DNA from: Corynebacterium glutamicum ATCC 13032
GTDB lineage: Bacteria; Actinomycetota; Actinomycetes; Mycobacteriales; Mycobacteriaceae
Direction: 5' to 3'
Assembly: GCF_000011325.1 (NCBI RefSeq)
Contig: NC_003450.3
Location: 1,860,001-1,892,000 of the forward strand
Length of the DNA stretch: 32,000 bases
The position numbers and the translations under genes were made by a program. Below, piece after piece: positions 14,301 to 32,000 of the stretch (position 1 is its first letter; every line of letters starts with the position of its first letter). The notes below the pieces were generated by a model. It was given only the letters and a program-made list of their open reading frames with translations, ran no database searches and was not told the DNA's origin.

Positions 14301-17300
14301 ATTCCAGCCCTGCTGCACGTGCATCAGCATCACTCATCGCTGGATCAACAACAAGAGCGATCACACCCTTATTACCGTGAAAATCAGACAGCTTATCGCC
14401 GGCAACCAAGGGGCGCATCTCATCTTCCGTATCGCGAATAACATGGGTATTCGCAAAATCGGCAGAGACAATAATGCCATCTTCAAAGTTCCAACCGCCC
14501 AGCTGTATCATCGCAGTGCGTGCACCACCAGTCACAGCGCTAGCCTGCATGATGTTCGAGAAAGTCATGTTCTGACGGTCATGTGGGTCAAAGCCCATCG
14601 CCCATGATTCTGGATGCGCTGCAACAGGTACTCGATCAGCCGGATCACCAGGGGTAATCATGCCATCAGCGCCCACCTTCGCAGAAGGCAACAAATAGCG
14701 AACAGAACCCTGGTTCGCCGCCATACCAGTCATCATGGGATCAAAGAAACCTTTACCCGCATCAACATCAAGTACAGAAATGTTACGCCCACCGGTAAGC
14801 ACCAGCGCATCACGGGAGTTATCATTACGCGCATCAAAACCACGCTGCTGTGCTCGAATATCCTCCATCACATTCGCACCATCACGAATAGAGTTGTCGT
14901 AGCGCACACGCAAACTCGCAGTCTCAAGCAACGCAGCACGCCACTCATCGCTCAAACCTTCTTCGGCGCTGCGCTCGAAGAAGTCCACAGGGAAGCGATT
15001 GTCATACAGTCGCTTATATGCACTGTTGATGCTGGTTGTAGCACCCACTCGGGATCGCTCAGTGAACATCAAATCTTCTCGCACACGGTACACCAACGCC
15101 TCTGACATCACCTGCTCATAGCCTTTGAGCTTGGTACGCTCTTCTAAACTCTTTGTCTCACCAGGCTTTTGTGGTACCACAGACGCGGTGTAGCCAGGGG
15201 CAAACATATAGTTCTCGCCACCATTAAATTTGGTGACAATTTCACCATGCTCACCGCGAGTAAAAATCTGACCTATCTCACCCTGCACATGACGGGTGCG
15301 TTCACCGCGAACCTGCCCCTTACTATCTACTGCACGACTATCCTTCGCACCAACACGTCGCTGTGCGGTCCACCGCACCACACCGTTATCGTCAACAGCA
15401 ATATCGACCACATCAGCACCATTGCGGGAAATAGTCTCGGCAATGACAGTGCCAAATCGAGCCAACTGCGGGTCAAGATCAGGGTTATTAACCATTTTCT
15501 GCGCGGTCTCAGGATTAAATTTGAGCAACTGTTGATTAATAACATCGTTATAGAATTCGTCACCGCGCAGTTCATCGCCAGTAATCGAAGTCGCTCGCAA
15601 CGCGGCAATAATATCGTCATGGTTTGACCACAGGGATTTAGCACTCGGCATGTGCTGAGCAACTGTCACCGGATTAAAACGCAAGCCGGTAACAGGATCA
15701 GGCTCCACCGTGCCGACATAATCATCAAGAACAAGGGCCGCGTGCTGACGCACACGATCCTCCACGGTCACAGCATTCATTGCTGAGGTCATCGCAGCAA
15801 TCTGCTCATGATCACCATCGCGGATAGCAGCCATATAATCATCGCGGTTAACCCCAGGGTTAAGCAGATCGGTTTCCTCACCTCGCAGCATCGCCCAATA
15901 GTCCTGCTTTATCGCCATGAGCTCATCCTCACCAGCAAAAGCCGGCATGAAGTCAGGATCATCGGCGTACTGTGCAGAAAGCGCAATCAGTTCTTCAACG
16001 CCGAGCTCTTCGGCCACACGCGCACGAGTAAGGGCGATATTGTTACCAAGCCACTCCGATGCTTTCGCTTCATTATCAAACCACTTTCCAGGACCAGCAC
16101 TTCGATCACGTGCATCCTGAACGATCGAGAGCCCTTCACGCACCATGAATGCGGAACGATTCTTAGTGAAATATGCATCCTGTGCCTGCTCTAAAGCACG
16201 TGGGTGTCGAGCATTAGGCACACCAACAAGACCTTTGCCATCCTGTCGCTCAACCTCTCGACCGAGAGCAAATTTCACGAGATCGACAACTTCAGTTGGG
16301 CTTGGTTCATAATCAGTAGCCGGTGTCCACGTTCCATCACCGTTCTCCATGCGCTCACGAGCTCGTAGACGTTCTTCCGCTGTTTGTTCGGCGGAATACT
16401 TAATCACAGTGCCAGAATCATAGACACGACCCACCCACTGTTCATTGGCGCGAGTATCAGTGAGACGAATATCAATACGGGTGCCCTCAATACGCACTTT
16501 AAGCTGTCCCGGCTCACGATCTGGCTCGATCCTAAAATCCACACCCTCATCCGACAGATACGTCAAAATAGCTTCCGAGCGCGCGATACCCTCATCAGAC
16601 ATGACCTTGTTGGGGTCAATTTTCTGACTCGCAACATCTGCGGTATCAATGAGTCCAGCACGCAGCCATGACGCTGCGGCACGGTATTCTTTAGCCGTCA
16701 TAAACTGACCAATATTGGGCAGTCGCATCTGGTCATTCTCGGTGATAGTGCGCCAGGCAATAGCTTCACCATTGACCCATTGAGTCAACGGTCGCACACC
16801 GCCTTTAGTGTCGTCTTCTCGATGAGTGCCCTCGTAAACATCATTATCTTGTAGGTGGATCGTTGCTAGATCAAGGTCCCTGATCATGCCAACACTCTCT
16901 TCGGACAGTGATAGCAGCTTGGTACCGTGCACACGGACTACTTCGCGGTCTGACCAGCGTGGATCATAAGGCGAAATAGGTAAACGACGACCACCCAGAT
17001 CAGGTCCCTCAGGCAAACCATTAGGTCCAATTGCAGTGCCGACCATCTTGTCGAAACGGTGACGCAGCGCCTGGTACCCCTTTGAACCCTCACCCTCGCG
17101 AGCAATCGCACTAAACATGGGTGCTGCGTGAGGTGCCACCTCAGCAAAGGCAGCATTGACAGAGGCGAAGAATGCCTGAGTACTCCCCCGCTGCTCTACT
17201 GGTTCATAGGTTGCGAGATGCTCATCAACAAGCGCTCGGATCGCACGGCCATCAGAGGTGCTAAACTGCGACACACCAGCATCAACGTGCGTACCCCAGG

Positions 17301-17886
17301 TACCAAACATCTCGACACCTTCATAGAAGGCGTACTCCCGGAAATAGCTCTCCATCGGATCAATGACAGGTAAACCCACACCCTCTGATTGGCGAACGGA
17401 CTCTTGCGCGAGCGTTTGTTCAGCCTGGAATGTTGCTTGATCACGTGCCTGGAAAATAGCTGCCTGCTCTTGCTCATAAGCAGCTTGCTGTAGCGCTTGT
17501 GCCTGCTGCTGTTGGGCCACGAGATCCTGCTGCACCAGCGCGTCATAAGATGACTTAATCGCCGTGTATTGCGGTGAATTAAGAATATTTCGCCTAGTTA
17601 CCTTCGCGAACTGTGGTCGGTGTACACAGCCATGAGCTTCGGCATCAGCGGCGAAGGCATCATCGAAAGACGCAAACATGATGGCGCCATAGGTCGCTTC
17701 ATCATTGAGGTCTAAGCCCTTATTGTTTGCTGCGCGCTGTTTCATCAAGGCTTCTGCTTGCCTATAGATACGCACAGCATCGTGATCACCCAGTGGAGCT
17801 TTGCCCCAGTGATCTTTTTGACCCCACTCTGAGCGCGCCATCTCAAGCGACCGTTCAAAAGCGTGTCGAAATAAAGTTTTGGACAT
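11377..17886 (-). CDS. single-chain beta-beta' fusion, multisubunit-type (two double-psi beta-barrel) RNA polymerase homologue, 2169 aa
   Basis: AAGGGAGGA RBS. RpoB-type motifs: FDPMMTGMAANQG, HDRQNMTFSNIMQASAV, GGWNFEDGIIVS, GDKLSDFHGNKGV, VVMSPFSAISRFNGG, GQGRKASSQLAWVLQAQE. RpoC-type motifs follow: VWTGDPRLSVDEVAMNSSMAREL, VWRDPVIRDGGVRYLRV, SFDGDFDGDSVGLV, ETGAKGSPG. Confidence 0.88.
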   Translation of the reverse strand: MSKTLFRHAFERSLEMARSEWGQKDHWGKAPLGDHDAVRIYRQAEALMKQRAANNKGLDLNDEATYGAIMFASFDDAFAADAEAHGCVHRPQFAKVTRRNILNSPQYTAIKSSYDALVQQDLVAQQQQAQALQQAAYEQEQAAIFQARDQATFQAEQTLAQESVRQSEGVGLPVIDPMESYFREYAFYEGVEMFGTWGTHVDAGVSQFSTSDGRAIRALVDEHLATYEPVEQRGSTQAFFASVNAAFAEVAPHAAPMFSAIAREGEGSKGYQALRHRFDKMVGTAIGPNGLPEGPDLGGRRLPISPYDPRWSDREVVRVHGTKLLSLSEESVGMIRDLDLATIHLQDNDVYEGTHREDDTKGGVRPLTQWVNGEAIAWRTITENDQMRLPNIGQFMTAKEYRAAASWLRAGLIDTADVASQKIDPNKVMSDEGIARSEAILTYLSDEGVDFRIEPDREPGQLKVRIEGTRIDIRLTDTRANEQWVGRVYDSGTVIKYSAEQTAEERLRARERMENGDGTWTPATDYEPSPTEVVDLVKFALGREVERQDGKGLVGVPNARHPRALEQAQDAYFTKNRSAFMVREGLSIVQDARDRSAGPGKWFDNEAKASEWLGNNIALTRARVAEELGVEELIALSAQYADDPDFMPAFAGEDELMAIKQDYWAMLRGEETDLLNPGVNRDDYMAAIRDGDHEQIAAMTSAMNAVTVEDRVRQHAALVLDDYVGTVEPDPVTGLRFNPVTVAQHMPSAKSLWSNHDDIIAALRATSITGDELRGDEFYNDVINQQLLKFNPETAQKMVNNPDLDPQLARFGTVIAETISRNGADVVDIAVDDNGVVRWTAQRRVGAKDSRAVDSKGQVRGERTRHVQGEIGQIFTRGEHGEIVTKFNGGENYMFAPGYTASVVPQKPGETKSLEERTKLKGYEQVMSEALVYRVREDLMFTERSRVGATTSINSAYKRLYDNRFPVDFFERSAEEGLSDEWRAALLETASLRVRYDNSIRDGANVMEDIRAQQRGFDARNDNSRDALVLTGGRNISVLDVDAGKGFFDPMMTGMAANQGSVRYLLPSAKVGADGMITPGDPADRVPVAAHPESWAMGFDPHDRQNMTFSNIMQASAVTGGARTAMIQLGGWNFEDGIIVSADFANTHVIRDTEDEMRPLVAGDKLSDFHGNKGVIALVVDPAMSDADARAAGLESEVAFFRDNPDLEVVMSPFSAISRFNGGTARELMNNPQDVVFRNNDGSTRVQPGASGDLNFIVTHMAVDAKTNVYDEEAVREGQGRKASSQLAWVLQAQECHEIMEHFYGNNVSALANFQEYLRVTGLDVTPYGELREGFSESNEQRNIIEMPSIYDENGELNNRVNRAQVREAFVEQISRAGGVMEIPFQLQLRNGAQLEESPNNPDMYQLPLLSPHLRSDEDLADGSTSRHEYTTRYMAIFDTCYKLAEEQAKIDALRQEEAQHGTLPRAAEKRLSESQKFVDQAQKKVQASFDGIANDIVASRIETKNNVFKDGFMSARQSHSATAVWTGDPRLSVDEVAMNSSMARELGVLDNGYAMVWRDPVIRDGGVRYLRVVINDDLHGVAVNPVSVKSFDGDFDGDSVGLVGNLPKKAHEEALSRLTVEANMLDLGDGKRMEDGTMFYGLTLHDSLDVQVAQHHDPAMAENMKVIVSELNRYQREYEAGEISREELLEVNRAHMDDLNEHYAQAFANRDGLVTLRFDGMENHMASVAQCFETGAKGSPGKLKEYATYIGADPAQGFKDVGQPTPEALRSHYEGSQKATAIKVLFTGVAGKKEQEMVALCRNLGLTKEAMAASAPAQQSILQAKHDPIDALYRAETLMGPVGDLYQGRKMRRGENEQGRYEWEVVRDENHQPIQATKDEWVQQYMEMYADDKGMGVSVGVDQVEKIAEEFSDEQGYMRVLSHDELPTEIKPLALDQLAYGDKKNRFDLLCEMAKQQVNIYDGDAYDFAPRVVRANMKAMEDAARFGIPDVEIQSISAQQSLASFERVPQRSGFRIERRVPAEVGTGIAAPAPLPDAGVQGNYVQQQVPATPPVMPVTPPAQQPVSPAQTDFRGVGQPLDQGGKIGNYGHQGPAMGAQQPVVPQQQNIPPVHNPVPQNSVPPTPVVPKPGTGNPFTHGGANNQFMGRFDTSRYNQQEPPQRQDGGFEL
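11380..11829 (-). other. P/Q-rich low-complexity C-terminal tail of the polymerase (aa ~2020-2169)
   Basis: The sequence includes PAPLPDAGVQGNYVQQQVPATPPVMPVTPPAQQPVSPAQ...PVVPQQQNIPPVHNPVPQNSVPPTPVVPKP. Confidence 0.8.
12457..13344 (-). other. beta'-subunit-like catalytic module (aa ~1515-1810) including the Mg-binding DFDGD loop
   Basis: DFDGD is encoded at 13090-13104 (gacttcgatggtgac on the minus strand). An SGAKGS-like element and a bridge-helix-like segment lie downstream. Confidence 0.8.
13987..14769 (-). other. beta-subunit-like catalytic module of the fused polymerase (aa ~1040-1300)
   Basis: GDKLSDFHGNKGV is encoded at 14362-14400 (checked by back-translation). The flanking RpoB-like blocks are listed under the parent CDS. 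Confidence 0.8.
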
Positions 17887-19403: not shown

Positions 19404-19411
19404 GTAGATAT

Positions 19412-20488
19412 ATGAAGCCCACCGTTAATGTTGTGTTCAATGCGCATCACCCCAAAGATACGCAGCCGTTGGATAAGTTCTTCGATAAAGAACTTAAAGA
19501 CACACATCATCTCGATATAACGGTGGGTTATATCAGTGAGAAATCACTACAATATTTGCTTCTTATTGCAGGCACTCACCCCGACCTCACCATCACACTC
19601 ACCTGTGGAATGCACGCTCGTGAAGGCATGACTGCTGCCCAACTGCATCATGCGCGAGTGCTCCATGACTACTTAAGCGACCATGATCGAGGCGGGGTGT
19701 TCGTTATTCCCCGATTGCGTTATCACGGCAAAATCTATCTTTTCCACAAGAACCAGCACACAGATCCTATTGCTTATATCGGTAGCGCTAACCTCTCAGC
19801 CATCGTTCCTGGGTACACCTCTACATTCGAGACCGGCGTCATCTTAGACCCCGCACCTGAAGATCTCGTGCTTCATCTCAACCGTGATGTCGTACCCCTA
19901 TGTGTCCCCATTGACACCGCGCATGTCCCCATCATTAAAGATCAAGAATCCCCGATGAAGCACGTCGCTGAAGCAACAGCTGTGTCCACCTCTGATGTTG
20001 TTGCCATCATGTCCAGCCCATTTACTTATAGTTTTGACCTTAAACTCAAAGCCACTGCCAGCAGCAACCTCAATGCTCATAACTCAGGCGGTGGCGCGCG
20101 CAAACAGAAAAACGGTAGCTTCCTTGCACGCAATTGGTATGAGGGCGAAATCATTGTCGGTGTCGAGACAACAAGACTCCCAGGTTACCCACAAAACAAA
20201 TCCGAATTCACTGCGGTCACTGATGACGGCTGGTCATTTGTTTGCAAAATCAGCGGAGGAAACGGAAAGAACCTACGCAGCAAAGGTGACCTGTCCATCC
20301 TCGGTACGTGGTTAAAGTCTCGATTCATTGAACAAGGTGCCCTGGAATACGGCGAGGATGCCACCCAAGAAAACATCGACCGTTTTGGGAGAACACATAT
20401 GACCATGCGCTATCACCCAGATTTCGATGTGTGGTCATTCGATCTCAGCCAAACCCCGAAGCCTTCGACACAGATTGGGCAGGATTAA
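19412..20488 (+). CDS. cglIR: restriction endonuclease R-protein: PLD-family (HxK) nuclease domain plus C-terminal B3-like DNA-binding region, R.CglI/R.NgoAVII type
   Basis: HKD motif HGKIYLF...YIGSANLS. The gene sits 8 nt after the MTase stop. The architecture is as described for CglI/NgoAVII. Confidence 0.85.
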   Translation: MKPTVNVVFNAHHPKDTQPLDKFFDKELKDTHHLDITVGYISEKSLQYLLLIAGTHPDLTITLTCGMHAREGMTAAQLHHARVLHDYLSDHDRGGVFVIPRLRYHGKIYLFHKNQHTDPIAYIGSANLSAIVPGYTSTFETGVILDPAPEDLVLHLNRDVVPLCVPIDTAHVPIIKDQESPMKHVAEATAVSTSDVVAIMSSPFTYSFDLKLKATASSNLNAHNSGGGARKQKNGSFLARNWYEGEIIVGVETTRLPGYPQNKSEFTAVTDDGWSFVCKISGGNGKNLRSKGDLSILGTWLKSRFIEQGALEYGEDATQENIDRFGRTHMTMRYHPDFDVWSFDLSQTPKPSTQIGQD

Positions 20489-20489
20489 T

Positions 20490-22466: not shown

Positions 22467-23990
22467 TTAAGCATCTTCAATACGCCTAAAGGCTCGCGCG
22501 ACTTCTTTATCAAAGTGACCCTGGGCGAGATCACGCCAATGCGGAAGCTCCACCAGCATGATGCGGAATGCTCGGGTGGTCTTATATTTACCCATAGCAG
22601 ACAGCGGATCATCCTCTGTGCCAGATAGAGCTTCTTCACCCTCAGAGTAGACACGCGACTGCTCCACTCCTGCTTGCGCGCGCATAAGTGCAATATCTTC
22701 CTGCGACAACGCCTCAATCAACACAGTGCCATCGACAGCATTAACCAAGCCGTTGTTAGCAGTCACCCGGAAATTCGGATCTTGAGCAAAAGCGTGCAGG
22801 CTCTCATCATAGGCTGCAGTGAGCTCATCTTCGAGTGAGTCCTGCAGGATGTGGCCGAATTGATCAGCCAGCATATCTCGTGACACCTTGCCTTCGGCAT
22901 AACGCTTCAACCGCATGTCAGCGAGCTTATGTTCTGCATTCTCCTGATCGTGAATGAATTCATCATTGACCTCTGCTTCTTCAGACAGAGATTTCTTTTT
23001 CACCTTCGTACCAGTAGCCACGGGGAAGCCCTGAGCACTGTCTTCGAACTCATCATCAAAAACGTCATATTCAGACTCCATGAAATCACGAGCATTCATG
23101 ACAGACTCATCCCCCTCGTCATAATCCGGCGTGTCATCGTACTCATCTTTCGCGATCATCGTGTCCACGATGTCCATGATTTCTGCTGAATACACATCCA
23201 TATCCAGGCGTGCAATATCAGAGTCATCGAGCCCAGTCGCCTTTTTATAAATATCGACGGCACGCTGAGTACGAATCGACTGCGCCATGCGCTTTTCCAG
23301 CATCGCCATAAAGTCCGGTGCATTTTGATTCACATCGAATTCATTAGCGCTCGACAGTGTTGGAATAGTCTGCAACGAGTATTCGCGACCCGGTTGGATA
23401 ATCTGGTTAGCAAACAACATGAACGACATCGGCCAAATCGTTTCATTGCGTGACCACACCGGATACTGACCCGCACGGAAGACGATGGCGTTCTGCGATG
23501 GCAGAGTATTTAGGTCATTATAAGACACCACCGGCTCTTTTTCAGTTGCAGACGTGTACGACACTTTACCCTCGGTGCGCATAACTAACTGTGCCAAGTC
23601 ACGGGTTACGGTCTTTGAATTTCTGCGTACAACATGTCGCTCACCTGACCAATCCACCAACGTCTTAATCATTGTTTCGTCTGTGGATTTCAAGAAGATA
23701 ATGTTGGACGTGTTGTGGGTCGGGATCATATCGTCAGTGATGTAGAGATGGTCACGGTCGGCAATGCTGATGCATTGCACGGTATCGCGGCGGGAGAATT
23801 CTACAGAGACGATTTCATTGTCTGCTGCGGGCACGTCGAGACGTGCCCGATCTGCTGGATCGAAGTTGTCGAGGATCTCTGGCGCCCGCGCTGCGACACC
23901 AGGCAGAAACACCTTATCCCCTCGTGCCAGCATCGCTTTAAGCTCTGCCGTGGTGACGATTCTGCGCTCGCCAGCAAGTGTTTGCGTCAT
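22467..23990 (-). CDS. C-terminal intein fragment (93 aa) fused to the C-terminal extein of a TraG/VirD4-type coupling ATPase (414 aa, acidic tail)
   Basis: Own RBS: GAAGGGG 9 nt upstream of the ATG. Intein blocks F/G: DTVQCISIADRDHLYITDDMIPTHN|T. The extein TSNIIFLKSTDETMIKTLVDWSGERHVV...NAIVFRAGQYPVWSRNETIWP matches the T4CP region after the Qx2QLx3YG motif. Confidence 0.85.
   Translation of the reverse strand: MTQTLAGERRIVTTAELKAMLARGDKVFLPGVAARAPEILDNFDPADRARLDVPAADNEIVSVEFSRRDTVQCISIADRDHLYITDDMIPTHNTSNIIFLKSTDETMIKTLVDWSGERHVVRRNSKTVTRDLAQLVMRTEGKVSYTSATEKEPVVSYNDLNTLPSQNAIVFRAGQYPVWSRNETIWPMSFMLFANQIIQPGREYSLQTIPTLSSANEFDVNQNAPDFMAMLEKRMAQSIRTQRAVDIYKKATGLDDSDIARLDMDVYSAEIMDIVDTMIAKDEYDDTPDYDEGDESVMNARDFMESEYDVFDDEFEDSAQGFPVATGTKVKKKSLSEEAEVNDEFIHDQENAEHKLADMRLKRYAEGKVSRDMLADQFGHILQDSLEDELTAAYDESLHAFAQDPNFRVTANNGLVNAVDGTVLIEALSQEDIALMRAQAGVEQSRVYSEGEEALSGTEDDPLSAMGKYKTTRAFRIMLVELPHWRDLAQGHFDKEVARAFRRIEDA
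23712..23990 (-). other. Int-C half of a split class-3-like intein
   Basis: Cys73 (codon 23772-23774) sits at the block F Asp position. T91-H92-N93 are followed by Thr+1 (23709-23711). ERRIVTTAELKAMLARGDKVFLP is a typical mid-intein segment. Confidence 0.75.
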
Positions 23991-24111
23991 ACTATAAACC
24001 CCTTCAATTAAATCAAGTAATTAATATACTAACTTAATTGAGTTTATTTTTACGGTTTAATTTACTCTAAGCGAAGACGCCCGGAATCACCATAAGCACC
24101 GTTTCCAGACG

Positions 24112-24160
24112 CAGAAACTAATTGAGCATATTGTAAAATATAGCTATGCTGACAATGATT
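24112..24160 (+). promoter_or_regulatory. repeat copy 1: leaderless-type promoter module (TAAAAT -10) driving a 24-codon ORF that runs antisense into 24217-24936
   Basis: 41 of 49 nt are identical to 25196-25244. The -10 box 24134-24139 ends 6 nt before ATG 24146. The mini-ORF 24146-24220 overlaps the stop of the convergent gene. Confidence 0.45.
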
Positions 24161-24216
24161 CCGCCACGACCATCTACACAGCTGACAGATAGAAGCGTTG
24201 AGAAGTGTTTTAAGTG

Positions 24217-24936
24217 TTAGCGATTAAAGCGCCCACAAATATAACCAACAGCAAATCCAGCAAGAGCACTTGTTGTTGCGCTCTCGACAGGACGGGTGGC
24301 TATATCCTCGGCAGGACTATCGGGGCTATCAGCATTATCTTCGTCATAAAAATCAGTGAGTATGCCATCAATAAAGTCATCCATGATTGATGTGATGAAA
24401 CTGGCGACTGCAATGAGCAGCAGCGATACGCACATAATCCATGCAGGTGCATCACTAAACGTATTAGGTGTGCTTGGGACGATGAATCCAAATGTAACAG
24501 AGTAGACAAGTCCGGGAATTAGTAGCGCATAAATAGCAATTAATACTACATAAGCAATAACAACACTGAACCTAGAAGAAGTCTTGTTGACGTAAAGCGC
24601 CATGCGACGTGCGATATGCGCGAACTCATGGCGACCGTGCACTACTCTATACATTGTTATCGCCATGTAGATCGCCAGGATTACTACGGATACAATCATT
24701 GCAGTCGAAGTTAGCCCTTCGACCAATGGAGTTGGCGCAATCATCAAAACCAGCAGCAGCGCTCTAATCTTGCGGACGAATAATGTGCGCAACATACTTC
24801 CTGCAATTTGCATATTGCTAGGATCGTCTGTGCCCCTGCCACGTCCGCCCTTGAGGTAGTGGTCTTCAATTCTATTGGTATTAGTCACTGGACTTTTTTC
24901 TCCTTGTGTAAATGTTCCTGAAAATAGTAGACTCAT
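24217..24936 (-). CDS. polytopic membrane protein with an HExxH motif (HEFAH, aa 103-107)
   Basis: At least four hydrophobic helices, for example ALLLVLMIAPTPLV, AMIVSVVILAIYMAITMY, FSVVIAYVVLIAIYALLIPGLVY and WIMCVSLLLIAVASFITSI. The start is uncertain: a GTG after AAGGAG lies downstream of ATG 24936. Confidence 0.6.
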   Translation of the reverse strand: MSLLFSGTFTQGEKSPVTNTNRIEDHYLKGGRGRGTDDPSNMQIAGSMLRTLFVRKIRALLLVLMIAPTPLVEGLTSTAMIVSVVILAIYMAITMYRVVHGRHEFAHIARRMALYVNKTSSRFSVVIAYVVLIAIYALLIPGLVYSVTFGFIVPSTPNTFSDAPAWIMCVSLLLIAVASFITSIMDDFIDGILTDFYDEDNADSPDSPAEDIATRPVESATTSALAGFAVGYICGRFNR

Positions 24937-25195
24937 TCGACTTTTAGGAATGGCAATTAACTCTGTCGATGAAACTGTGAAGTAAAAGCAGTTTCAGTAA
25001 AAGCACATCTATACGTGCTCTCACTATCACTGTGCGCGCATCATAAAAACGCGCAAGCACTATATAAATATCAACAGTTTCTGCACAATAATCAGAAAAC
25101 AATAAATAAGCTGGTCACCACAGCAACTCACCCCACCCGGTCCCCCTTTTTTCCTCACTGACACCGGAGCCGCCTCAAGCACCACGCTGCAATCA

Positions 25196-25244
25196 CAGAA
25201 GCTAGTTGAGCATATTGTAGAATATAACTATGCCAACACTGCTT
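25196..25244 (+). promoter_or_regulatory. repeat copy 2: leaderless-type promoter of the 606-aa nuclease gene
   Basis: TAGAAT (25218-25223) ends 6 nt before ATG 25230, and there is no SD. Weaker similarity to copy 1 extends about 30 nt further upstream. Confidence 0.5.
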
Positions 25245-27050
25245 ATTGACACCCATCCGCATCTTGCAGCGCAACTTCTTGACCCTGGTTTAGGTGAACT
25301 TCTTACAGCCGGTTCCAACAAAAAAGTGCAGTGGCAGTGCCCTAAGCACTCCAATCACATCTGGACGGCCTCGGTTAATAACCGCACCAATGCAAAGAAC
25401 CCGCGCTGCCCCTATTGTGCCGGAACACGAGTGTTGGCAGGTTTTAATGATCTCGCCACCACTCACCCGCATCTTGCTGTACAGCTGGTTGACCAAGATA
25501 TTGCCGTCACCATTTCCGCTGGTTCTGGCAAAAGACAACTGTGGCAGTGTGTAGTAAACCCAAAACACCAGTGGTTGGCTACGCCAAATAATCGCACGAG
25601 TACTAAATCTGCGAGTTCTGGTTGCCCCTACTGTGCCAACCGAGCGGTATTAGTCGGTGACAATGACTTTGCAACAACCTACCCCGAACTTGCAGCGCAA
25701 TTAGTAGATCAATCTGCAGCGACAACCTTTACAGCCGGCCACAACAAGCCTGTTGAGTGGATCTGTTGCAAGCATGAACCACCATTTATCTGGAAAACCT
25801 CACCAATTTTGCGTGTACGACAGAACACCCAGTGCCCTGTGTGCTCAGAGCGAACTGTGGCGCCGGCGCTTAATGATCTTGCAACCACTCACCCTAAACT
25901 TGCCGAGCAAATTGCAGATCCTCAACCAAGTGGTGTGAGCGCCGCGGCCATTATCCCCACCATTAGCAGGGGTTCCCATACGCAATTAACATGGCAATGT
26001 TCTAAAAATCATGACCACCAATGGGTCGCCACAGTAAAGGATCGTGTTCGCGGAACAGACTGCCCCACCTGCGCAAATACAGGAACTTCACGCAAAGAGG
26101 CTGAACTTATTGAGGTCATCCGTGCATTATTCCCAAACACTGATGTCCAGCAAGGTGCGCTCATTAATGGACGTACCGGTAATCAAGGTGCATCGCCGTC
26201 AACCGATGTACTCATACCGTCCAAAAATCTCGCTATCGAGTTCAACGGCCTGTACTGGCACTCTGAGCTTTTCATCAAAGATAAGCATTATCATGCGAAC
26301 AAATCAGCTCTCGCAGAACAAGCCGGTGTGCAGCTCATTCATGTGTGGGAGGACGACTGGAATCTTCGCCGCGACATTGTGATCCGCATGATCGCACACA
26401 AGCTTCATGCAACCCATAACCTCAGTGCTGTTTTGCCTACCGAAACTACTGACTCACGTGTGGCAACCACCGCTTTCGCCCGTACACTCACACTGTCGGT
26501 GGTCTCTGGTTCACGCGCTGCTGCATTCTTGAACAGCAACCATATTCAGGGTGCTGTCTCGGCCACTAAGCACTTTGCCCTGTGCGACAACAACGACGAT
26601 ATTCGAGCACTCCTGTCGGTGCGCTCACCAAAAAACAATGCCCGCATGTATCGCAAAAAAGGCACATGGGAAATCCAGCGCTATGCGACACTCGGTAACG
26701 TCCCTGGCGGTTTTACTAGGCTGCTGAAGTTTGCCGAGCACACACTCAACGAACACAGCACAGTACTCAAGCAATGGATCTCATTTTCTGCTGCTGATGT
26801 CTCTGACGGCAGCCTGTATCGAACTGCCGGTTTTACCGCCGAGCAACAGCTTGCACCGGATTATCGCTATGTCGGTGGCGCAACAGGTTGGCGCCGAACA
26901 CCCAAAGAAAGCTTCCAGCGCAAACGCTTTAGAGACGACCCAGCGTTGCTATGGAACGAATCTTGGACAGAGCACGAAGCAGCGCTCAACAACGAGCTCT
27001 ACAGAATCTACGATGCCGGCAAAACCCGGTGGGTTAAAAATGTTGCTTGA
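25230..27050 (+). CDS. free-standing homing-endonuclease-like protein: four tandem treble-clef zinc-ribbon repeats + PD-(D/E)xK (Vsr-like) nuclease core + unknown C-terminal domain
   Basis: The ~70-aa repeats begin at aa 8, 79, 151 and 221. Each has the form HP.LA.QL.D...W.C...H.W......R.....CP.C. Nuclease core: STDVLIPSKNLAIEFNGLYWHSE...HANK...GVQLIHVWEDDW. Confidence 0.8.
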   Translation: MPTLLIDTHPHLAAQLLDPGLGELLTAGSNKKVQWQCPKHSNHIWTASVNNRTNAKNPRCPYCAGTRVLAGFNDLATTHPHLAVQLVDQDIAVTISAGSGKRQLWQCVVNPKHQWLATPNNRTSTKSASSGCPYCANRAVLVGDNDFATTYPELAAQLVDQSAATTFTAGHNKPVEWICCKHEPPFIWKTSPILRVRQNTQCPVCSERTVAPALNDLATTHPKLAEQIADPQPSGVSAAAIIPTISRGSHTQLTWQCSKNHDHQWVATVKDRVRGTDCPTCANTGTSRKEAELIEVIRALFPNTDVQQGALINGRTGNQGASPSTDVLIPSKNLAIEFNGLYWHSELFIKDKHYHANKSALAEQAGVQLIHVWEDDWNLRRDIVIRMIAHKLHATHNLSAVLPTETTDSRVATTAFARTLTLSVVSGSRAAAFLNSNHIQGAVSATKHFALCDNNDDIRALLSVRSPKNNARMYRKKGTWEIQRYATLGNVPGGFTRLLKFAEHTLNEHSTVLKQWISFSAADVSDGSLYRTAGFTAEQQLAPDYRYVGGATGWRRTPKESFQRKRFRDDPALLWNESWTEHEAALNNELYRIYDAGKTRWVKNVA

Positions 27051-27213
27051 TTCTGCAGATTAGTTACTGAAACTGAATTAATGTAGGCTGCGTATGGCCT
27101 ATTTTTGCTGGTTGTACAGTGTTTTTCCGCATTCGTAAGGGATGAGTGACCTGTCAGGTTGCCACTTCTAACCAAATAATAAGTAATCAATTTTAAAGGA
27201 AAAGAATTAAAGC

Positions 27214-27593
27214 ATGTCTAAAAATACAAATATTTCGCCATTGCTCTCCTAGCACCCATCCTCGGCTTAGTCGCTGCAGGTTGCTCCACTACAGCTGAAG
27301 AGCCAGCTGCAACTCAGGTAGAAGAAACAACAGTCGCCCGAGTTGAACACGATACTTACGACACTATTGCTAACCAGCTACAAGATGCCGGTGTCTATGA
27401 CGATGTGGCCTTTGCCGAAGGCTACTACCAGGAAATGGCTGAGGTTGTATGTGAAGCACGCGAAGAGGGTATCACCCACGAGGACACCCTGCATATGCTC
27501 AATGACATGATGGCAATGAAACGATCTGGCGAAGTACTCAATACGCTCGCTGATGTTCTCTATGCAAATGAATGCCCTGAATATCGAATCTAA
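27214..27593 (+). pseudogene. small lipoprotein gene interrupted by a frameshift at an A5 run
   Basis: AAAGGA RBS and ATG 27214 give MSKNTNISPLLS*. The frame displaced by one nt reads KYFAIALLAPILGLVAAGCSTT... (lipobox LVAAGC) through to stop 27593. Adding one A at 27220-27224 restores MSKKYKYFAIALLAPILGLVAAGC. Confidence 0.6.
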
Positions 27594-27630
27594 ATTGTTG
27601 GTTCACTCTGCATAGACACAACACCACACA

Positions 27631-27678
27631 ACAAAAAACAACCCCCTAAGGATAATCCTCAGGGGGTTGTTCTGTTTC
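27631..27678. terminator. bidirectional terminator between the lipoprotein gene and the Int-N gene
   Basis: Stem AACAACCCCCT (27637-27647) / AGGGGGTTGTT (27661-27671) with inner AGGA/TCCT pairs. T6 lies on the minus-strand side and TTCTGTTT on the plus side. Confidence 0.8.
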
Positions 27679-27684
27679 GACTCA

Positions 27685-28038
27685 TTATGCTGCGCTTGCT
27701 GCATCCTGCTCGGCAGGAACCACAATCACTTCCCACAAATGCTCATCACAAGCCTCTGTGGTTGAGCCATCTTTACGTGTCACAGTAAATACATCTCGCT
27801 CACCCTGTGGGAACACACCGTCAATCTCGCTGACTGTCCCCTTTGGGGTAAGCACCTTCATACCTGCTTCTGCTTCGCCCATCGTGACCCATCCATCAGG
27901 TGTTGCGATCTTCGCCGTCAACGGCTGCGCATTACCTTGGAGAATCTTGTCTGAGGCTTCGCCATACACCTGAGTCAACTGCTGCAGTGTCTGCAGAATC
28001 AATGATGTCAATAGGTAACGCTTTGATCTTATCTCCAC
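27685..28038 (-). CDS. coupling-ATPase exon 2 (about 25 codons, LILQTLQQLTQVYGEASDKILQGN) fused to the N-terminal intein fragment; the 5' ~28 nt of the ORF are probably intron
   Basis: LILQTLQQLTQVYG is the T4CP Qx2QLx3YG block. It is followed by the Hint-type sequence AQPLTAKIATPDGWVTMGEAEAGMKVLTPKG...CDEHLW, then a stop and a terminator. Confidence 0.8.
   Translation of the reverse strand: MEIRSKRYLLTSLILQTLQQLTQVYGEASDKILQGNAQPLTAKIATPDGWVTMGEAEAGMKVLTPKGTVSEIDGVFPQGERDVFTVTRKDGSTTEACDEHLWEVIVVPAEQDAASAA
27688..27930 (-). other. Int-N half (81 aa) of a split class-3-like intein
   Basis: Ala1 (codon 27928-27930) follows extein Asn. Block A: AQPLTAKIATPDGW. Block B: CDEHLW, with His100 and Trp102. 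Confidence 0.75.
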
Positions 28039-28053
28039 GTTTTCCCCTGACCC

Positions 28054-28089
28054 ACACCGTACGTGCGACTTTCACCGCATACGGCGCTC
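28054..28089 (-). ncRNA. group II intron domain V
   Basis: GAGCGCCGUAUGCGGUGAAAGUCGCACGUACGGUGU has a 9-bp lower helix, a 2-nt AC bulge, a 5-bp upper helix and a GAAA loop. It is almost identical to the classical yeast ai5gamma D5 (GAGCCGUAUGCGAUGAAAGUCGCACGUACGGUUC, from memory). The triad reads CGC. Confidence 0.85.
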
Positions 28090-28227
28090 CATCACTAGAG
28101 TTCTTATCCCTCCGGTGACTTGTGACCATTACTCCTGCTCTCATTACAAGAGCTATCAACGCTTCGATCACTACTTTTCAACACTCGTTCGACTGCTTAT
28201 TATTCTTCGTCAGTCTACGCAAAACCG

Positions 28228-29445
28228 CTATCCAAAAACTTCTTCCTGAAACGGACCACTTACTAATAACTCGCCAATTGATTCTGCTGTTCTCGCCGTA
28301 TATGGGATCTCCAAAAGTGTTAGCTCTCGGACTACAGTAAACGCTCGTTTTCGTCTGTCGTGCTCTTGTTGGATCGCGAAACGACTCTCTCCACCGAAAT
28401 ACTCAACTGGTCTAAAATGCTGCTCACCTTGGCACTCAATCAACAACCAGGGCTCGGTATCCTTGAAAACCAAAAAATCATAACTCAGTGGTCCTCCACC
28501 AACCCCCACCAAACCATCGAAAGTCTTTTGAGATTCAAACTGAAAATCATTCTTTAAAAGAAAGTCCCTGACATGTGACTCTTGGATTGATCCGTGCAAA
28601 CAACCACACGATTGGCTAATACCCTGCCTCAACATAATCCCAGCAACAGCATTTTCGGAGCCGCACATACATCGGCACAACCACATTTGAGACCGCCCAC
28701 CACCAGGGTAAAACCTGTCATCCGTACGAGACAGCACAGTCCACTGGTTAAATACCTTGCCAGTCAAATCTTCAAAAACAGCAGTTTCTCGTCGCTGTTC
28801 TATGCGATAGCACCCGCACGATATTGACCGACCCCGCAACAAAGACTGTTCCAATACGTCCCTTGTCGCTCCACACTCGCACTCGCAAAACCACGCCTTA
28901 GATAAGCGACCCCACTGCAGCACGTCCTCACCACGTCGAACAACAGACCATCGACCAAATGTGGAACCAACTAAATCCCTATTCTTTGAAAGCGACTCGA
29001 TTTTTAGACAACCACACGATTTCGAATCACCATTCTTCAGTGACCCCGCAGCAAGATCTTTCTCAACACCGCAAGTACATCTGCAATGCCACATGGTGGT
29101 TTTCCTTCCTGTGGAGGAAACCCTACTTTCCGCTCGATCTATGACAGTCCATCGCCCAAACACCTGACCTATGAGATCCTGTAAGTTCTTACCCTGCATC
29201 CTTTTACGAACAGTCTCATAACGACGACAACCGCACGATGCGGTTTCATCAGCGTTCTTAAATCTAGAGGCCGGTGCATCATACTCCCTGCCACAATCAC
29301 AAAGACATTGATACCGAACCTCAATCTTGCCACTTTTGTTTACACGATCGTTAGTGCGATAAAGAACTTTTATATGCCCGAAAGTTTTACCGGATAAATC
29401 ATTAAACTTTCGTCGCCGATGTTGTTGCGGTGCTCGTATTGTCAT
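28228..29445 (-). CDS. intron-encoded protein: four tandem CxCxCG...SCGC zinc-ribbon repeats + PD-(D/E)xK nuclease core (405 aa); no reverse-transcriptase/maturase motifs
   Basis: The repeats begin at aa 17, 90, 157 and 226. Each has the form L.G..FG.W.V......W.C.C.CG.......L..G...SCGC. Nuclease core: SYDFLVFKDTEPWLLIECQGEQHF...DRRKRA...LLEIPY. Confidence 0.8.
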   Translation of the reverse strand: MTIRAPQQHRRRKFNDLSGKTFGHIKVLYRTNDRVNKSGKIEVRYQCLCDCGREYDAPASRFKNADETASCGCRRYETVRKRMQGKNLQDLIGQVFGRWTVIDRAESRVSSTGRKTTMWHCRCTCGVEKDLAAGSLKNGDSKSCGCLKIESLSKNRDLVGSTFGRWSVVRRGEDVLQWGRLSKAWFCECECGATRDVLEQSLLRGRSISCGCYRIEQRRETAVFEDLTGKVFNQWTVLSRTDDRFYPGGGRSQMWLCRCMCGSENAVAGIMLRQGISQSCGCLHGSIQESHVRDFLLKNDFQFESQKTFDGLVGVGGGPLSYDFLVFKDTEPWLLIECQGEQHFRPVEYFGGESRFAIQQEHDRRKRAFTVVRELTLLEIPYTARTAESIGELLVSGPFQEEVFG

Positions 29446-30024
29446 CTCAAACTACTTTCAAATATATACCTTTATTTGTATATATTACCCCTTTTAATTA
29501 ATTAAACAAGCTTTCAGCCTTGATAACAAGTGGTCCATTTCACTATAAAGTTATTAAATATTGGCAGCTATTTCACGCCGAATATCTTTCCCAGTTCCGT
29601 TTCACCTATCCGTTACATGCTGCCCTTAGGTGCTCACTCTGACCCTGCTCGCCTCGGATGTGCCTGTAACACATCAGGGAGGTTCATAAATTCAAGTCTT
29701 ACTTGTCCCCTACGAGCACTAACGCATTTCTACGCCGAACAATTCAAGAGCCGTACATTCGCAAGTTCGTCAGTTATCTCACTCGATAACATTCTCACCC
29801 TAGGCAGTTTCTGGACACCCGGCATATCAGCGGCACATCAGATCACTCTGACGCTTTCGTAGCTACTGTGATCAAATCCCAGCACCTTTACGACCGACCT
29901 TCTGCCGACTCTAACGGGCTTTATACAGTTCTATTTTGTTCAAACCGCATACCGTAGCTTGGTGTGCACATTTCAGGGCGTTACTCCGTCATTCTGTGTA
30001 TCAATGAAACAGTTTCTTGCAACT

Positions 30025-31707
30025 TTAAGCTGCAAGAGCGTAGTTTTTCGCTACGCAACTGGTCGCACTAAATTGTTGTTCTTGTCCCAGACCGATCGAG
30101 AGCATGGTTTCAAATCCCGCAATACCATGACCCTCACTCTGAAGGTTTCCCAACTCGTCCAACATGAAACGAGTCTTATAATCCGGCTTCTGATTCTCAC
30201 GCGTCATATACGAGGAATCGAAGTTCAGATCCACAAGCTGTTTGATGAGAATCAAAATCAACTTCGCATATTTCATAAGATGCGGAGGCGTTACGAAGAA
30301 CACTGCCTTAGGCTTCTCCGAATACCGCACATTCAGAGCCGACACCGCATCAACCATCGCATCAACCTGCTTGATCATGTCATGACCCGGCATATTGATC
30401 TGTTCCTGCGTGAGTTGGTCAAGATTCAGTTTCTTCGTCTTAAACTGCACATGACCTGGAACAAAGTCACCAGCATCGTTTTTCACCAGCTCGATCAGCA
30501 GACCATTCTTAATGATCTTCTCATCGGTCACCGGATCAGTAATAAACGCACGGCCTTTAAGGTTCGTTTGGTAGCCCTTGGTGAACTTGAAGTACAGAGT
30601 CTTGATCAACGTGCCAGAAGTACCATTGAGAATCCGCAAACGCAGGTACGCAGTATTACTCGGGAACGAGTCTTTAATATAGAACCGCGCCCAACCCTCA
30701 ACCGACAGCGTGTCATCATGAACAAAATTCTTACCCAACGGCTTGGTGAACTTGGCGTCACTATACGCATCCCATTTCACCTGTGATCCAACCAGGTTGT
30801 AGCGCTTCACATAGGGGGCCGCAAAACGAACACCCATGCGCCGTGGAAACGACAATCCGGCCAAGTCAACGTTCTGACTTAGTGTGCCTGAGGTTAACGT
30901 TGAAATTGTGGGGTCTGTAAAGAAGGACATCGCTGTAATCGCGATACCGTAGACCGACGCCATCATTTTTTCAGCGCCACCCATTGCTTTCAGGGCCTTA
31001 TCTGCGTTGCCCACCAGAGTACGAACACTGGACTTTGGCAGACCGTCTGTGGCACTAAAGAACAAGGTGAGCATGTCTTTTTCTTTCTCACCCTCCCACA
31101 GAAACATTTCGTTCTCTTCGGCCTCTGTCACAGCATCCTGGAACATCATGGCTGCATTTTCATCAGTCTCTAAGTTACCGAATTCACCGGCACGTGCACG
31201 TTCATTGAGTCGCTCAACGGGATTCTTCAGCTTCTTTGCCGAAAGCTGCACAAAGAGCTGGTAGCAGTTGTAGAGCGTGACCTTACCCCACATCTGATCA
31301 ATACGTGTATCAAGCACCTTGGCATCCCAATTCTCAGCTGCAGCCTGCTTGCGCATCTCGCGCTCCTCTTCCAAATAGAAGTCGATAAGACCATAGGCTG
31401 CACGCTTGAAGGCATTGTTGGCCGCATTCGGCCATACCGGATCATCGGCACCGTCCACCGGAAAGAACACCTCTGCGATATTTTCCACATAGGTTGCGCA
31501 CTTCATCCCGTTACCTTCGCGAGCTGCTTCGGCTGCTAATCCCAACGGGTTATAAATATCAGTTTTCAGGTTGTTAATCAGGTTAAACTGAACAACCTGA
31601 AAACCGCGCTTAGACATCCGAACATAATTTTTCTTCAGCAACTCGCCTTTAGGGTCGTTGATACACATATTGTTCGGTCGAGTTTCCCTCGTCCACATGT
31701 CGATCAT
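30025..31707 (-). CDS. coupling-ATPase (TraG/VirD4/TraD-type) central exon; the last 14 codons (SATSCVAKNYALAA*) are intron read-through, and the frame is open upstream to 31734
   Basis: INDPKGEL (the DPKGE block following the P-loop). KTRFMLDELGNLQSEGHGIAGFETMLSIGLGQEQQF (Walker B region). There is no Walker A, so the N-terminal exon must lie upstream. Confidence 0.75.
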   Translation of the reverse strand: MIDMWTRETRPNNMCINDPKGELLKKNYVRMSKRGFQVVQFNLINNLKTDIYNPLGLAAEAAREGNGMKCATYVENIAEVFFPVDGADDPVWPNAANNAFKRAAYGLIDFYLEEEREMRKQAAAENWDAKVLDTRIDQMWGKVTLYNCYQLFVQLSAKKLKNPVERLNERARAGEFGNLETDENAAMMFQDAVTEAEENEMFLWEGEKEKDMLTLFFSATDGLPKSSVRTLVGNADKALKAMGGAEKMMASVYGIAITAMSFFTDPTISTLTSGTLSQNVDLAGLSFPRRMGVRFAAPYVKRYNLVGSQVKWDAYSDAKFTKPLGKNFVHDDTLSVEGWARFYIKDSFPSNTAYLRLRILNGTSGTLIKTLYFKFTKGYQTNLKGRAFITDPVTDEKIIKNGLLIELVKNDAGDFVPGHVQFKTKKLNLDQLTQEQINMPGHDMIKQVDAMVDAVSALNVRYSEKPKAVFFVTPPHLMKYAKLILILIKQLVDLNFDSSYMTRENQKPDYKTRFMLDELGNLQSEGHGIAGFETMLSIGLGQEQQFSATSCVAKNYALAA

Positions 31708-31736
31708 TGGCTCAATGTAGGTCTGACATGATCTTC

Positions 31737-31793
31737 AGGACTGTTCGCAACACAATCCTCGGGGGCGAACCCCTGCTCACGCTTTCACGTGAG
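31737..31793 (-). other. three consecutive RNA hairpins (GAAA- and UUCG-capped): candidate 3' part of another intervening sequence (group I-like?)
   Basis: On the minus strand: CUCACGU-GAAA-GCGUGAG (31776-31793), GGGG-UUCG-CCCC (31762-31773), and AGGAUUG-N9-CAGUCCU (31737-31759). They lie immediately upstream of the point where the ATPase frame opens. Confidence 0.4.
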
Positions 31794-31828
31794 ATGAGAT
31801 TATATGTTCATCTTAAGTGCTTAATAAC

Positions 31829-32000
31829 TTAATAAGTTTGTCGAGAATCCCAATCAATTGAATCTAAACAACCACCATCAAACCACGCTCGCGCATCACT
31901 TAATCGAGGATGTCTTCCCTCACCATCAATAGAACTGCTGCCATCCCAAAAAACCAAATAATTCAACTTATTGATTCTTGCGGCCTCGCGCTTAGCCACA
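31829..32000 (-). CDS. 3' end of a third PD-(D/E)xK homing-endonuclease-like ORF (5' part outside window)
   Basis: ...AKREAARINKLNYLVFWDGSSSIDGEGRHPRLSDARAWFDGGCLDSIDWDSRQTY*. The Kx3Ax3-hydrophobic-W segment parallels HANKSALAEQAGVQLIHVWEDDW in the 606-aa protein and DRRKRAFTVVRELTLLEIPY in the 405-aa protein. Confidence 0.45.
   Translation of the reverse strand, partial: VAKREAARINKLNYLVFWDGSSSIDGEGRHPRLSDARAWFDGGCLDSIDWDSRQTY

Follow-up and report, generated by a model that had tools for sequence, protein, structure and literature searches.

A 32,000-nt stretch of the Corynebacterium glutamicum ATCC 13032 chromosome (NC_003450.3, positions 1,860,001 to 1,892,000; hereafter the window) was analysed around two open reading frames (ORFs) that carry the halves of an intein within the gene for a conjugation-type coupling ATPase (type IV coupling protein, T4CP) of the island CGP3. 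We consider it likely that this T4CP is encoded by a 'fractured gene', in which two polypeptides are joined post-translationally by a naturally split class-3 intein acting as a functional trans-splicing pair. The N-terminal half of the intein (Int-N) is encoded at the end of a 117-codon ORF (28038..27685, minus strand), in which ...LILQTLQQLTQVYGEASDKILQGN precedes 81 intein residues, and the C-terminal half (Int-C) opens a 507-codon ORF (23990..22467, minus strand), in which 93 intein residues are followed by TSNIIFLKSTDE..., the distance between the halves being 3694 nt. The coordinates, strand and motifs of both halves had been given in an earlier reading of the same DNA (the original prediction) and were all found to be correct when the sequence was read again. 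The positions of the individual features are collected in Table 1.

Judged from its sequence matches, the host protein is a VirD4/TraG-type coupling ATPase of the conjugation type located in the CGP3 island, and no typical phage gene product. The 507-aa ORF is identical to BAB99172.1 of C. glutamicum ATCC 13032 and was found on 305 contigs; full-length T4CPs were located by tblastn on Rhodococcus, Gordonia and Streptomyces plasmids, and a phage collection searched with the C-fragment gave zero matches. The upstream ORF (31707..30025) matches the Pfam family T4SS-DNA_transf (PF02534) at 3.5e-8. Three pieces of the window were aligned to the uninterrupted 1412-aa protein WP_032373195 of Rhodococcus fascians pGS01 and gave identities of 72%, 62% and 39%: the long T4CP exon matches residues 432-977 (72%), the short 25-codon exon directly before the intein matches residues 977-1001, which end in ...DKIVQGN, and the C-extein matches residues 1001-1405 (39%). 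The two intein-bearing ORFs cover positions 30-59 and 56-125 of the Pfam profile TraG-D_C, continuous across the junction, and each fragment alone scores under the cut-off of PF12696. At the junction, the Rhodococcus protein reads ...GLGQEQQFTLILQTLQQLRDVYGESVDKIVQGN-AANLVFLKSTDD and the window minus its intein parts reads ...ILQGN-TSNIIFLKSTDE, with zero residues gained or lost (QGN/TSNIIFLKSTDE in the window versus QGNAANLVFLKSTDD in Rhodococcus). The predicted spliced junction peptide is ILQGNTSNIIFLK.

At the level of sequence, all of the defining features of a class-3 intein are present. When all PDB sequences were searched with the fused halves by phmmer, the matches comprised class-3 DnaB inteins from M. 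smegmatis (6bs8, E=2.4e-6) and from M. chimaera (6rix/6riy), as well as gp41-1, and the 6bs8 alignment spans both halves, pairing HLW with HQW and VQCISIADRDHLYITD-DMIPTHN with VRCVEVDNPEHLYLAGPGMVPTHN. The M. smegmatis intein (Msm DnaBi1) carries His65 (B:10), Trp67 (B:12), Cys118 (F:4) and Asn139 (G:7) (PMC5222942), the counterparts of which in the fused window intein are His64, Trp66, Cys154 (Int-C Cys73) and Asn174 (Int-C Asn93), with Thr172 at G:5. Position 1, after ...ILQGN, is an Ala without a Cys, Ser or Thr nucleophile, and this Ala is at least 90% conserved in a family alignment of 42 sequences. In block B (CDEH64LW66) the Trp stands two residues past the His, an arrangement invariant in the 42 sequences; in block F, VQC154ISI aligns to VRC118VEV of Msm DnaBi1 and the Cys column is invariant; at the C-terminal end, P-T172-H173-N174, the T, H and N columns are all invariant; and the +1 residue is Thr (TSNIIFLK), with T(S/A/G)N in all split relatives. 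The invariant columns of the alignment (P3, G13, H64, W66, C154, Y164, T172, H173 and N174) are all represented in the window. The original prediction had assigned the intein to class 3 on the basis of Ala1 and the Trp/Cys/Thr (WCT) triplet and had named alignment to class-3 inteins as a check; in that alignment, the residues occupy the positions that they hold in the solved class-3 inteins.

An exhaustive search of 1.84 billion proteins at E<=1e-3 identified 7336 representative proteins matching the fused halves, and the top matches belong to a large family of inteins that start with AQPL, end with (V/P)THN/T and are mostly placed after the P-loop GK. An AlphaFold2 model of the fused halves was calculated from a 36-sequence alignment of full-length database proteins, yielding a predicted local distance difference test score (pLDDT) of 91.9 and a predicted template modelling (TM) score (pTM) of 0.87, with lower values only at residues 71-90 around the 81/82 junction. 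A single-sequence AlphaFold model (pLDDT 53.8) was too poor and was set aside. When the alignment-based model was compared with the PDB using Foldseek, class-3 intein crystal structures ranked first (E ~4e-9, target TM 0.84), followed by gp41-1 and then by class-1 inteins, and the fused halves are accordingly modelled as one HINT domain, predicted to be closest to class-3 structures. The intein reading is far beyond chance because the exteins are restored exactly, class-3 inteins are matched in the PDB and 7336 representative proteins match the fused halves.

Unsplit inteins occupy the same T4CP site (QGN/.../TSNI) in other proteins. P0011 is a contiguous 166-aa mini-intein, 52% identical, in a related T4CP, and represents the contiguous version that the original prediction had proposed to seek in related prophages; full-length LAGLIDADG inteins are found in P0043 (Streptomyces), P0038 and P0044. 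P0011 reads CDEHLWDVIVVSQDASPAAAEGVRQVVSTMELAELI... where the window reads CDEHLWEVIVVPAEQDAASAA and a stop codon, then MTQTLAGERRIVTTAELKAML... at the head of Int-C, and the break therefore falls in the loop between the block-B strand (residues 65-71 of the model) and the next strand (residues 89-94), in agreement with the proposed 81+93 division between block B and the strands that follow. The LAGLIDADG domain of P0043, P0038 and other family members follows ...V(F/Y)LP..., being inserted at approximately fused residue 115 and about 35 residues past 81/82, which bears out the claim that the break lies away from the endonuclease-insertion site typical of known split inteins. Natural split inteins are otherwise broken at the endonuclease site or near the N-terminus, with an Int-N of 25-30 aa (PMC11766414, PMC10559147), and the 81+93 division is neither of these described positions. 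A 12-nt similarity between the Int-N tail and the Int-C head, put forward as a 9/12 match and a possible mark of the ancestral break point, is 8/12 in the register given and at chance level; it was rejected as a break-point mark because it is one of two short diagonals in different registers. The reading of the Int-N tail and the Int-C head as duplicates was also rejected, since contiguous P0011 shows them as consecutive loop residues.

The two halves are laid out as separate genes. Directly 3' of the Int-N stop codon lies a terminator-like hairpin with an 18-bp stem and a T run, the strong terminator of the original prediction, and a comparable hairpin is found 3' of the Int-N stop at locus L003. 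Int-C has its own ATG and, 8 nt 5' of it, the Shine-Dalgarno (SD) sequence GAAGGGG, also as predicted. Across loci, a stop codon closes Int-N in at least 8 cases, and Int-C has its own start signals in at least 17. The genome of C. suranareeae (AP017369) has the same split layout, comprising a single 1072-aa ORF for the T4CP N-part and Int-N, a 507-aa ORF for Int-C and the C-extein and, between the halves, a 606-aa endonuclease-like gene on the other strand and a membrane-protein ORF of 232 aa. Nei-Gojobori counts between the C. glutamicum window and C. suranareeae gave ratios of non-synonymous to synonymous differences per site (pN/pS) of 0.024 for Int-N (13 synonymous, 1 non-synonymous) and 0.19 for Int-C, in which the block F and G residues are all unchanged; the C-extein, the endonuclease gene and the T4CP exon had values of 0.10, 0.09 and 0.03, respectively.

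Besides C. suranareeae, further split loci were obtained from metagenome and read assemblies, and the split recurs at the same loop in about 20 loci, with gaps of 2.2-9.3 kb and in hosts of high as well as low GC content. No fewer than 7 additional Int-N ORFs end soon past HLW (after 3-13 residues in six of them, the tail of L020 exceeding 70 residues), at least 17 Int-C ORFs start directly before (E)RR(I/V)VTT with 44-65% identity, and all of the split relatives keep AQPL, xxxHLW, VQCI, THN and T+1. In the 90% cluster of the C-fragment, the members listed from long contigs are all full length (507 aa). The L010 contig is 99.98% identical to the window and differs by three single-base deletions only; these are read as assembly errors because all of them lie in homopolymer runs of a read assembly, and they were rejected as evidence of decay. 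By these comparisons, the split state is maintained and under purifying selection.

The proposed mechanism follows the characterised class-3 inteins by homology. An N-precursor consisting of the T4CP N-part and the 81-aa Int-N would associate with a C-precursor consisting of the 93-aa Int-C and the 414-aa C-extein, attack of Int-C Cys73 on the peptide bond between Asn and Ala1 would form a branched thioester at block F, the N-extein would be transferred to Thr+1, and cyclisation of Asn93 together with an O-to-N shift would yield the mature T4CP. Class-3 trans-splicing has been demonstrated for AceL NrdHF (PMC7891396) and for artificially split DnaBi1 (PMC10559147). The C. glutamicum mRNA for the N-part would also have to shed a group II intron and one further intervening element. 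If this reading is true, the C. glutamicum T4CP needs one protein-level and two RNA-level splicing events, and assembly of the DNA-transfer ATPase could depend on CGP3 induction or on the redox state.

The content of the gap agrees with the original prediction in its length of 3694 nt and in its genes, namely a membrane-protein ORF with a HEFAH motif, a homing-endonuclease-like gene on the opposite strand and a frameshifted lipoprotein gene. The 606-aa ORF matches Pfam DUF4379 (1.1e-40), PHROG 559 (9e-71) and PHROG 3339 ('homing endonuclease', 7e-68), and its motif LAIEFNGLYWHS has a weak match (E=0.8) to the catalytic core of the Vsr-like intron endonuclease I-Bth0305I (3r3p). Four tandem-like repeats of 210-216 nt at 25250-25920 correspond to the four zinc-finger modules of this ORF. 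The same endonuclease-like family lies between the halves and on the opposite strand at L006, L011, L020 (two copies), L021 (two copies) and L171, adjoins the Int-C ORF in L007 and stands downstream of Int-N in L004; it was not found at L013, L022 and L023. Synteny of the 606-aa ORF was counted at 7 other loci. The two copies stand in tandem in the split loci L020 (3006-8781) and L021 (447-10019). From these matches, the 606-aa gap gene is a predicted homing endonuclease, and the layout matches that of a 'fractured gene'.

The split may have arisen from a contiguous mini-intein: a zinc-finger/Vsr-like homing-endonuclease gene, itself free-standing, would have entered its coding DNA at the loop that follows block B and would have created both the Int-N stop and the new Int-C start. 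In a wider interpretation, the loci would form an unrecognised and widespread clade of naturally split canonical-WCT class-3 inteins, with their break in mid-domain, past block B and ahead of the next strand. Natural inteins would then have a third type of split site in addition to the canonical and short-Int-N ones, and the free-standing zinc-finger/Vsr-like homing endonuclease would have created the break and may maintain it; we regard the chances of this interpretation as evenly balanced.

A scan of genome contigs returned a single locus, in an Accumulibacter metagenome-assembled genome (JAIRPF010000164; L005, 145-1965), where the same intein family (AQPL...STADHLW / ECQCIRIA...DDMIPTHN, then T) is found in a different host gene and is split at the canonical site into 103+48 aa. 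Its 1-kb gap contains a SocA/Panacea antitoxin-like gene (Pfam 7e-24) on the opposite strand, and the frame appears to shift about 5 codons past THN, which may reflect an assembly error or decay. In this Accumulibacter element, the same intein family has probably been split independently at the canonical site.

The activity of the trans-splicing pair is inferred from conservation and purifying selection, and several points weigh against it. The split position 81/82 would be a new one for a natural intein; the Pfam intein and Hint models gave nothing usable on the fused or separate halves, and the NCBIfam model intein_Cterm, applied to the same sequences, reached E=0.11, under its cut-off. In addition, the T4CP gene lies in a cryptic island with a decayed neighbour (the frameshifted lipoprotein gene), two RNA-level excisions are needed, one of them of an intron without a maturase, and Int-C is interrupted by a stop or frameshift in the metagenomic loci L025 and L026. 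These lesions, the lipoprotein frameshift, the two further intervening elements of the T4CP gene and the description of CGP3 as a cryptic prophage island (PMC8002715) would suit a history in which a mobile cassette broke a once-contiguous intein and left inactive remnants in a non-functional and slowly decaying T4CP gene. Such a history is nevertheless unlikely in view of pN/pS values of 0.02-0.19 on the halves and ~0.03-0.10 on the exteins between two Corynebacterium species, the retention of all catalytic residues across about 20 diverged split loci, with identities as low as 44%, from high- and low-GC hosts, the full-length members listed from long contigs in the 90% cluster and the homopolymer position of the L010 indels.

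The present data would fit covalent ligation and tight association alike and, as split intein halves bind tightly (PMC7891396), the two halves might associate without splicing, either as a high-affinity dimerisation module for a two-chain T4CP or with cleavage only. We hold this to be quite unlikely, as it leaves the strict conservation of Ala1, Cys F:4, Thr G:5, His-Asn and Thr+1 unexplained and an intein lodged within QGN-T(S/A)N, a conserved motif of the ATPase fold. Since the T4CP gene also contains a genuine group II intron and a further intervening element, the 3.7-kb gap might itself be a large intron that is excised from the RNA, which would make the intein contiguous in the mature mRNA. 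Almost no credence is given to this idea: no intron-family RNA was matched in the gap by Rfam even at E<=1, the gap genes lie on both strands, a terminator stands directly past the Int-N stop, and the SD sequence and start codon of Int-C are conserved. Moreover, the Int-N tails range from 3 to more than 70 residues and the gaps of 2.2-9.3 kb differ in content, and both therefore fit free termini rather than splice sites. A functional split intein that joins the two T4CP polypeptides thus remains the preferred reading, and Table 1 lists its parts alongside the other features of the locus.

Table 1. Positions in the window of the intein halves, the T4CP gene segments and the neighbouring elements.
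Feature	Position	Strand	Description
Int-N	27688..27930	-	81 aa, AQPLTAKIATPDGW...ACDEHLWEVIVVPAEQDAASAA; stop 27687-27685
Int-N residues	Ala1 27930-27928; His64 (B:10) 27741-27739; Trp66 (B:12) 27735-27733	-	
Int-C	23712..23990	-	93 aa, own ATG; ends ...VQCISIADRDHLYITDDMIPTHN, then Thr+1
Int-C residues	Cys73 (F:4) 23774-23772; Thr91-His92-Asn93 (G:5-7) ending 23712	-	
C-extein	22467..23711	-	T4CP C-terminal part from Thr+1 (TSNIIFLKSTDE...), 414 aa + stop
Short T4CP exon	27931..28004	-	(T)LILQTLQQLTQVYGEASDKILQGN; last N-extein residues before the intein
T4CP exon	30069..31725	-	QTYIEP...GLGQEQQF + first base of Thr codon; Walker B, central ATPase domain
Group II intron	28005..30068	-	5' GUGCG ... 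3' AU; domains I-IV 30017-29808, V-VI 28089-28005
Intron domain IV ORF	28228..29445	-	405 aa; zinc-ribbon repeats + nuclease-like C-terminus (IECQGEQHF...EHDRRK)
Third intervening element, 3' end	31726..32000	-	Just after Walker A, GKG/QTYIEP; most outside the window
Terminator-like hairpin	27635..27673	-	18-bp stem + T run, directly 3' of Int-N stop
Homing-endonuclease-like gene	25230..27050	+	Free-standing, 606 aa; four treble-clef zinc-finger modules; core LAIEFNGLYWHS...HVWEDDW
Membrane protein ORF	24217..24936	-	239 aa, HEFAH motif; no family match
49-nt direct repeat, copy 1	25196..25244		Promoter-like on minus strand
49-nt direct repeat, copy 2	24112..24160		~120 nt upstream of Int-C start
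Lipoprotein gene (probable pseudogene)	27214..27593	+	Lipobox LVAAGC; 1-nt deletion after codon 4

The membrane-protein and lipoprotein genes look like passengers of the gap. The former lies in a 1084-bp cassette that is bracketed by the two 49-nt repeats, which are 84% identical, and copy 2 is a candidate promoter region for the Int-C/C-extein gene. L004 was read as being without the membrane cassette because its copy 1 runs straight into copy 2. The same locus contains an intact 127-aa lipoprotein ORF, comparison with which exposed the deletion in the window; the lipoprotein gene is missing in C. suranareeae and, from its broken frame, is probably a pseudogene in the window.

Two further elements interrupt the T4CP gene. 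The group II intron, which precedes the 25-codon exon and goes unmentioned in the original prediction, was identified by Rfam RF02004 (133 bits, domains I-IV) and RF00029 (62 bits, domains V-VI), both above gathering, and its excision restores QQF-T-LILQ exactly; a megablast search against plasmids returned domain V of this intron as the sole match. The ORF in domain IV has no Pfam match and no reverse transcriptase/maturase domain, and matches PHROG 374/559 ('HNH endonuclease'), 9084 ('homing endonuclease') and 7140 ('intron encoded nuclease'). The third intervening element, which has no Rfam match, carries a 402-aa DUF7487 ORF with the nuclease-like motif IELNGDRSH, the C-terminus of this ORF lying in the window, and is seen whole in L010 (609-2265), where the N-part ends in ...TRAGKGN and a stop, followed by a 1.66-kb insert and then QTYIEP. 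Both elements are missing from C. suranareeae, the genome of which documents the intron-less state of the orthologue. L004 was dropped as an intron-less allele, as it starts with a SMART cDNA oligo and may be spliced RNA. Another structured T4CP insert is located directly before ELGNLQ, in the Walker B region, in L003 (3560-4510) and L004 (24-200), and in L003 group II domains V-VI are matched at yet another site (2706-2799). Three different selfish elements, all equipped with an endonuclease-like gene of their own, have colonised one conjugation ATPase in the window.

Genes for a C5 methylase, an NgoFVII-type endonuclease and a Z1/DEAD ATPase (18312-22388, plus strand) adjoin the T4CP C-fragment, and this three-gene restriction-modification architecture matches that described for the CglI system, which lies inside the inducible cryptic island CGP3 (PMC8002715, PMC4267653). 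A 2169-aa ORF (11377..17886, minus strand) is also carried by L010 and L171. The presence of CglI-like genes beside the T4CP C-fragment, together with the 2169-aa ORF and the plasmid-like T4CP, suggests that part of CGP3 derives from an actinobacterial conjugative element, and raises the question of such an origin for part of a 'prophage'.

The sole natural split class-3 intein described so far is atypical in sequence and known from a metagenome only. A canonical WCT pair in a tractable industrial bacterium would give a testable natural class-3 trans-splicing system with a new split position (~80+90 aa) and the nucleophile on the C-fragment. It would also extend the available tools by a pair with other fragment sizes, a Thr+1 junction and just two cysteines.

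Among known systems, the mycobacterial DnaB mini-inteins Msm DnaBi1 (6bs8) and Mch DnaB-1 (6rix/6riy) are the best matches in both sequence (E=2.4e-6) and fold (TM 0.84), share the aligned residues H65/W67/C118/N139 (Msm numbering; H64/W66/C154/N174 here) and have Ser or Thr at +1, the window intein having Thr. For DnaBi1, the one split on record is artificial and was made at the canonical loop (PMC10559147). The mycobacterial inteins are contiguous, cis-splicing and placed at the DnaB P-loop, whereas the window intein is split and placed in a T4CP. The genomic arrangement recalls the 'fractured genes' of Dassa et al. (2009, NAR 37:2560), which are said to be conserved enzyme genes of mobile elements that a split intein interrupts, its halves being separated by a free-standing endonuclease gene; a Vsr-like endonuclease family is reportedly present at half of the loci. 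The inteins there are reportedly of class 1, lie in phage genes of DNA metabolism and are broken where the endonuclease domain inserts; here, in contrast, the intein is of class 3, the host is a conjugation ATPase, the loop is a different one and the gaps are larger (2.2-9.3 kb) and contain cargo genes. Type IVB systems use IcmO/DotL as their coupling ATPase. The Bvi IcmO mini-intein is also of class 3 and sits in a plasmid-borne IcmO gene, the function of which is described as unestablished, but it is contiguous, has Cys+1 and occupies another insertion site (...SLGF/C...) (PMC5222942). AceL-TerL, GOS-TerL and VidaL share a split away from the canonical site; they are class-1 inteins with an Int-N of ~25-30 aa and a break near block A (PMC11766414), whereas the Int-N of the window holds blocks A and B and the break is mid-domain. 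In literature searches of incomplete coverage, no paper connecting inteins with CGP3 was found in full texts, an earlier description elsewhere being possible; a combined-term search found none mentioning both split inteins and coupling proteins, and among five papers returned for inteins with conjugative coupling proteins, none dealt with the topic, judging by title or abstract.

The closest precedent is AceL NrdHF, which Hoffmann et al. (2020) reported as the first class-3 intein to be naturally split, after a survey of nr had found none among 1701 class-3 inteins (PMC7891396), a count that missed split halves annotated as 'hypothetical protein'. This publication has overtaken the statement of the original prediction that it knew of none, which is therefore no argument for novelty. 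AceL NrdHF shares with the window intein Ala1, an internal block-F Cys, an organisation as two genes with a free-standing homing-endonuclease gene between them and a mobile-element context (PMC7891396). It has, however, an atypical MCT triplet and is without the F:13 and G:6 His, whereas WCT, the canonical triplet, and His-Asn are present in the window intein; its break into 98+48 aa falls at the canonical endonuclease-insertion site, as opposed to 81+93 aa in the loop after block B; and its host is a ribonucleotide reductase with a GIY-YIG endonuclease, as opposed to a T4CP with a zinc-finger/Vsr-like endonuclease. AceL NrdHF is known from a metagenome only and the window intein from a cultured Corynebacterium. 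What is new relative to AceL NrdHF is the canonical WCT triplet with His-Asn, the split site, the host protein, the endonuclease and the occurrence in cultured hosts.

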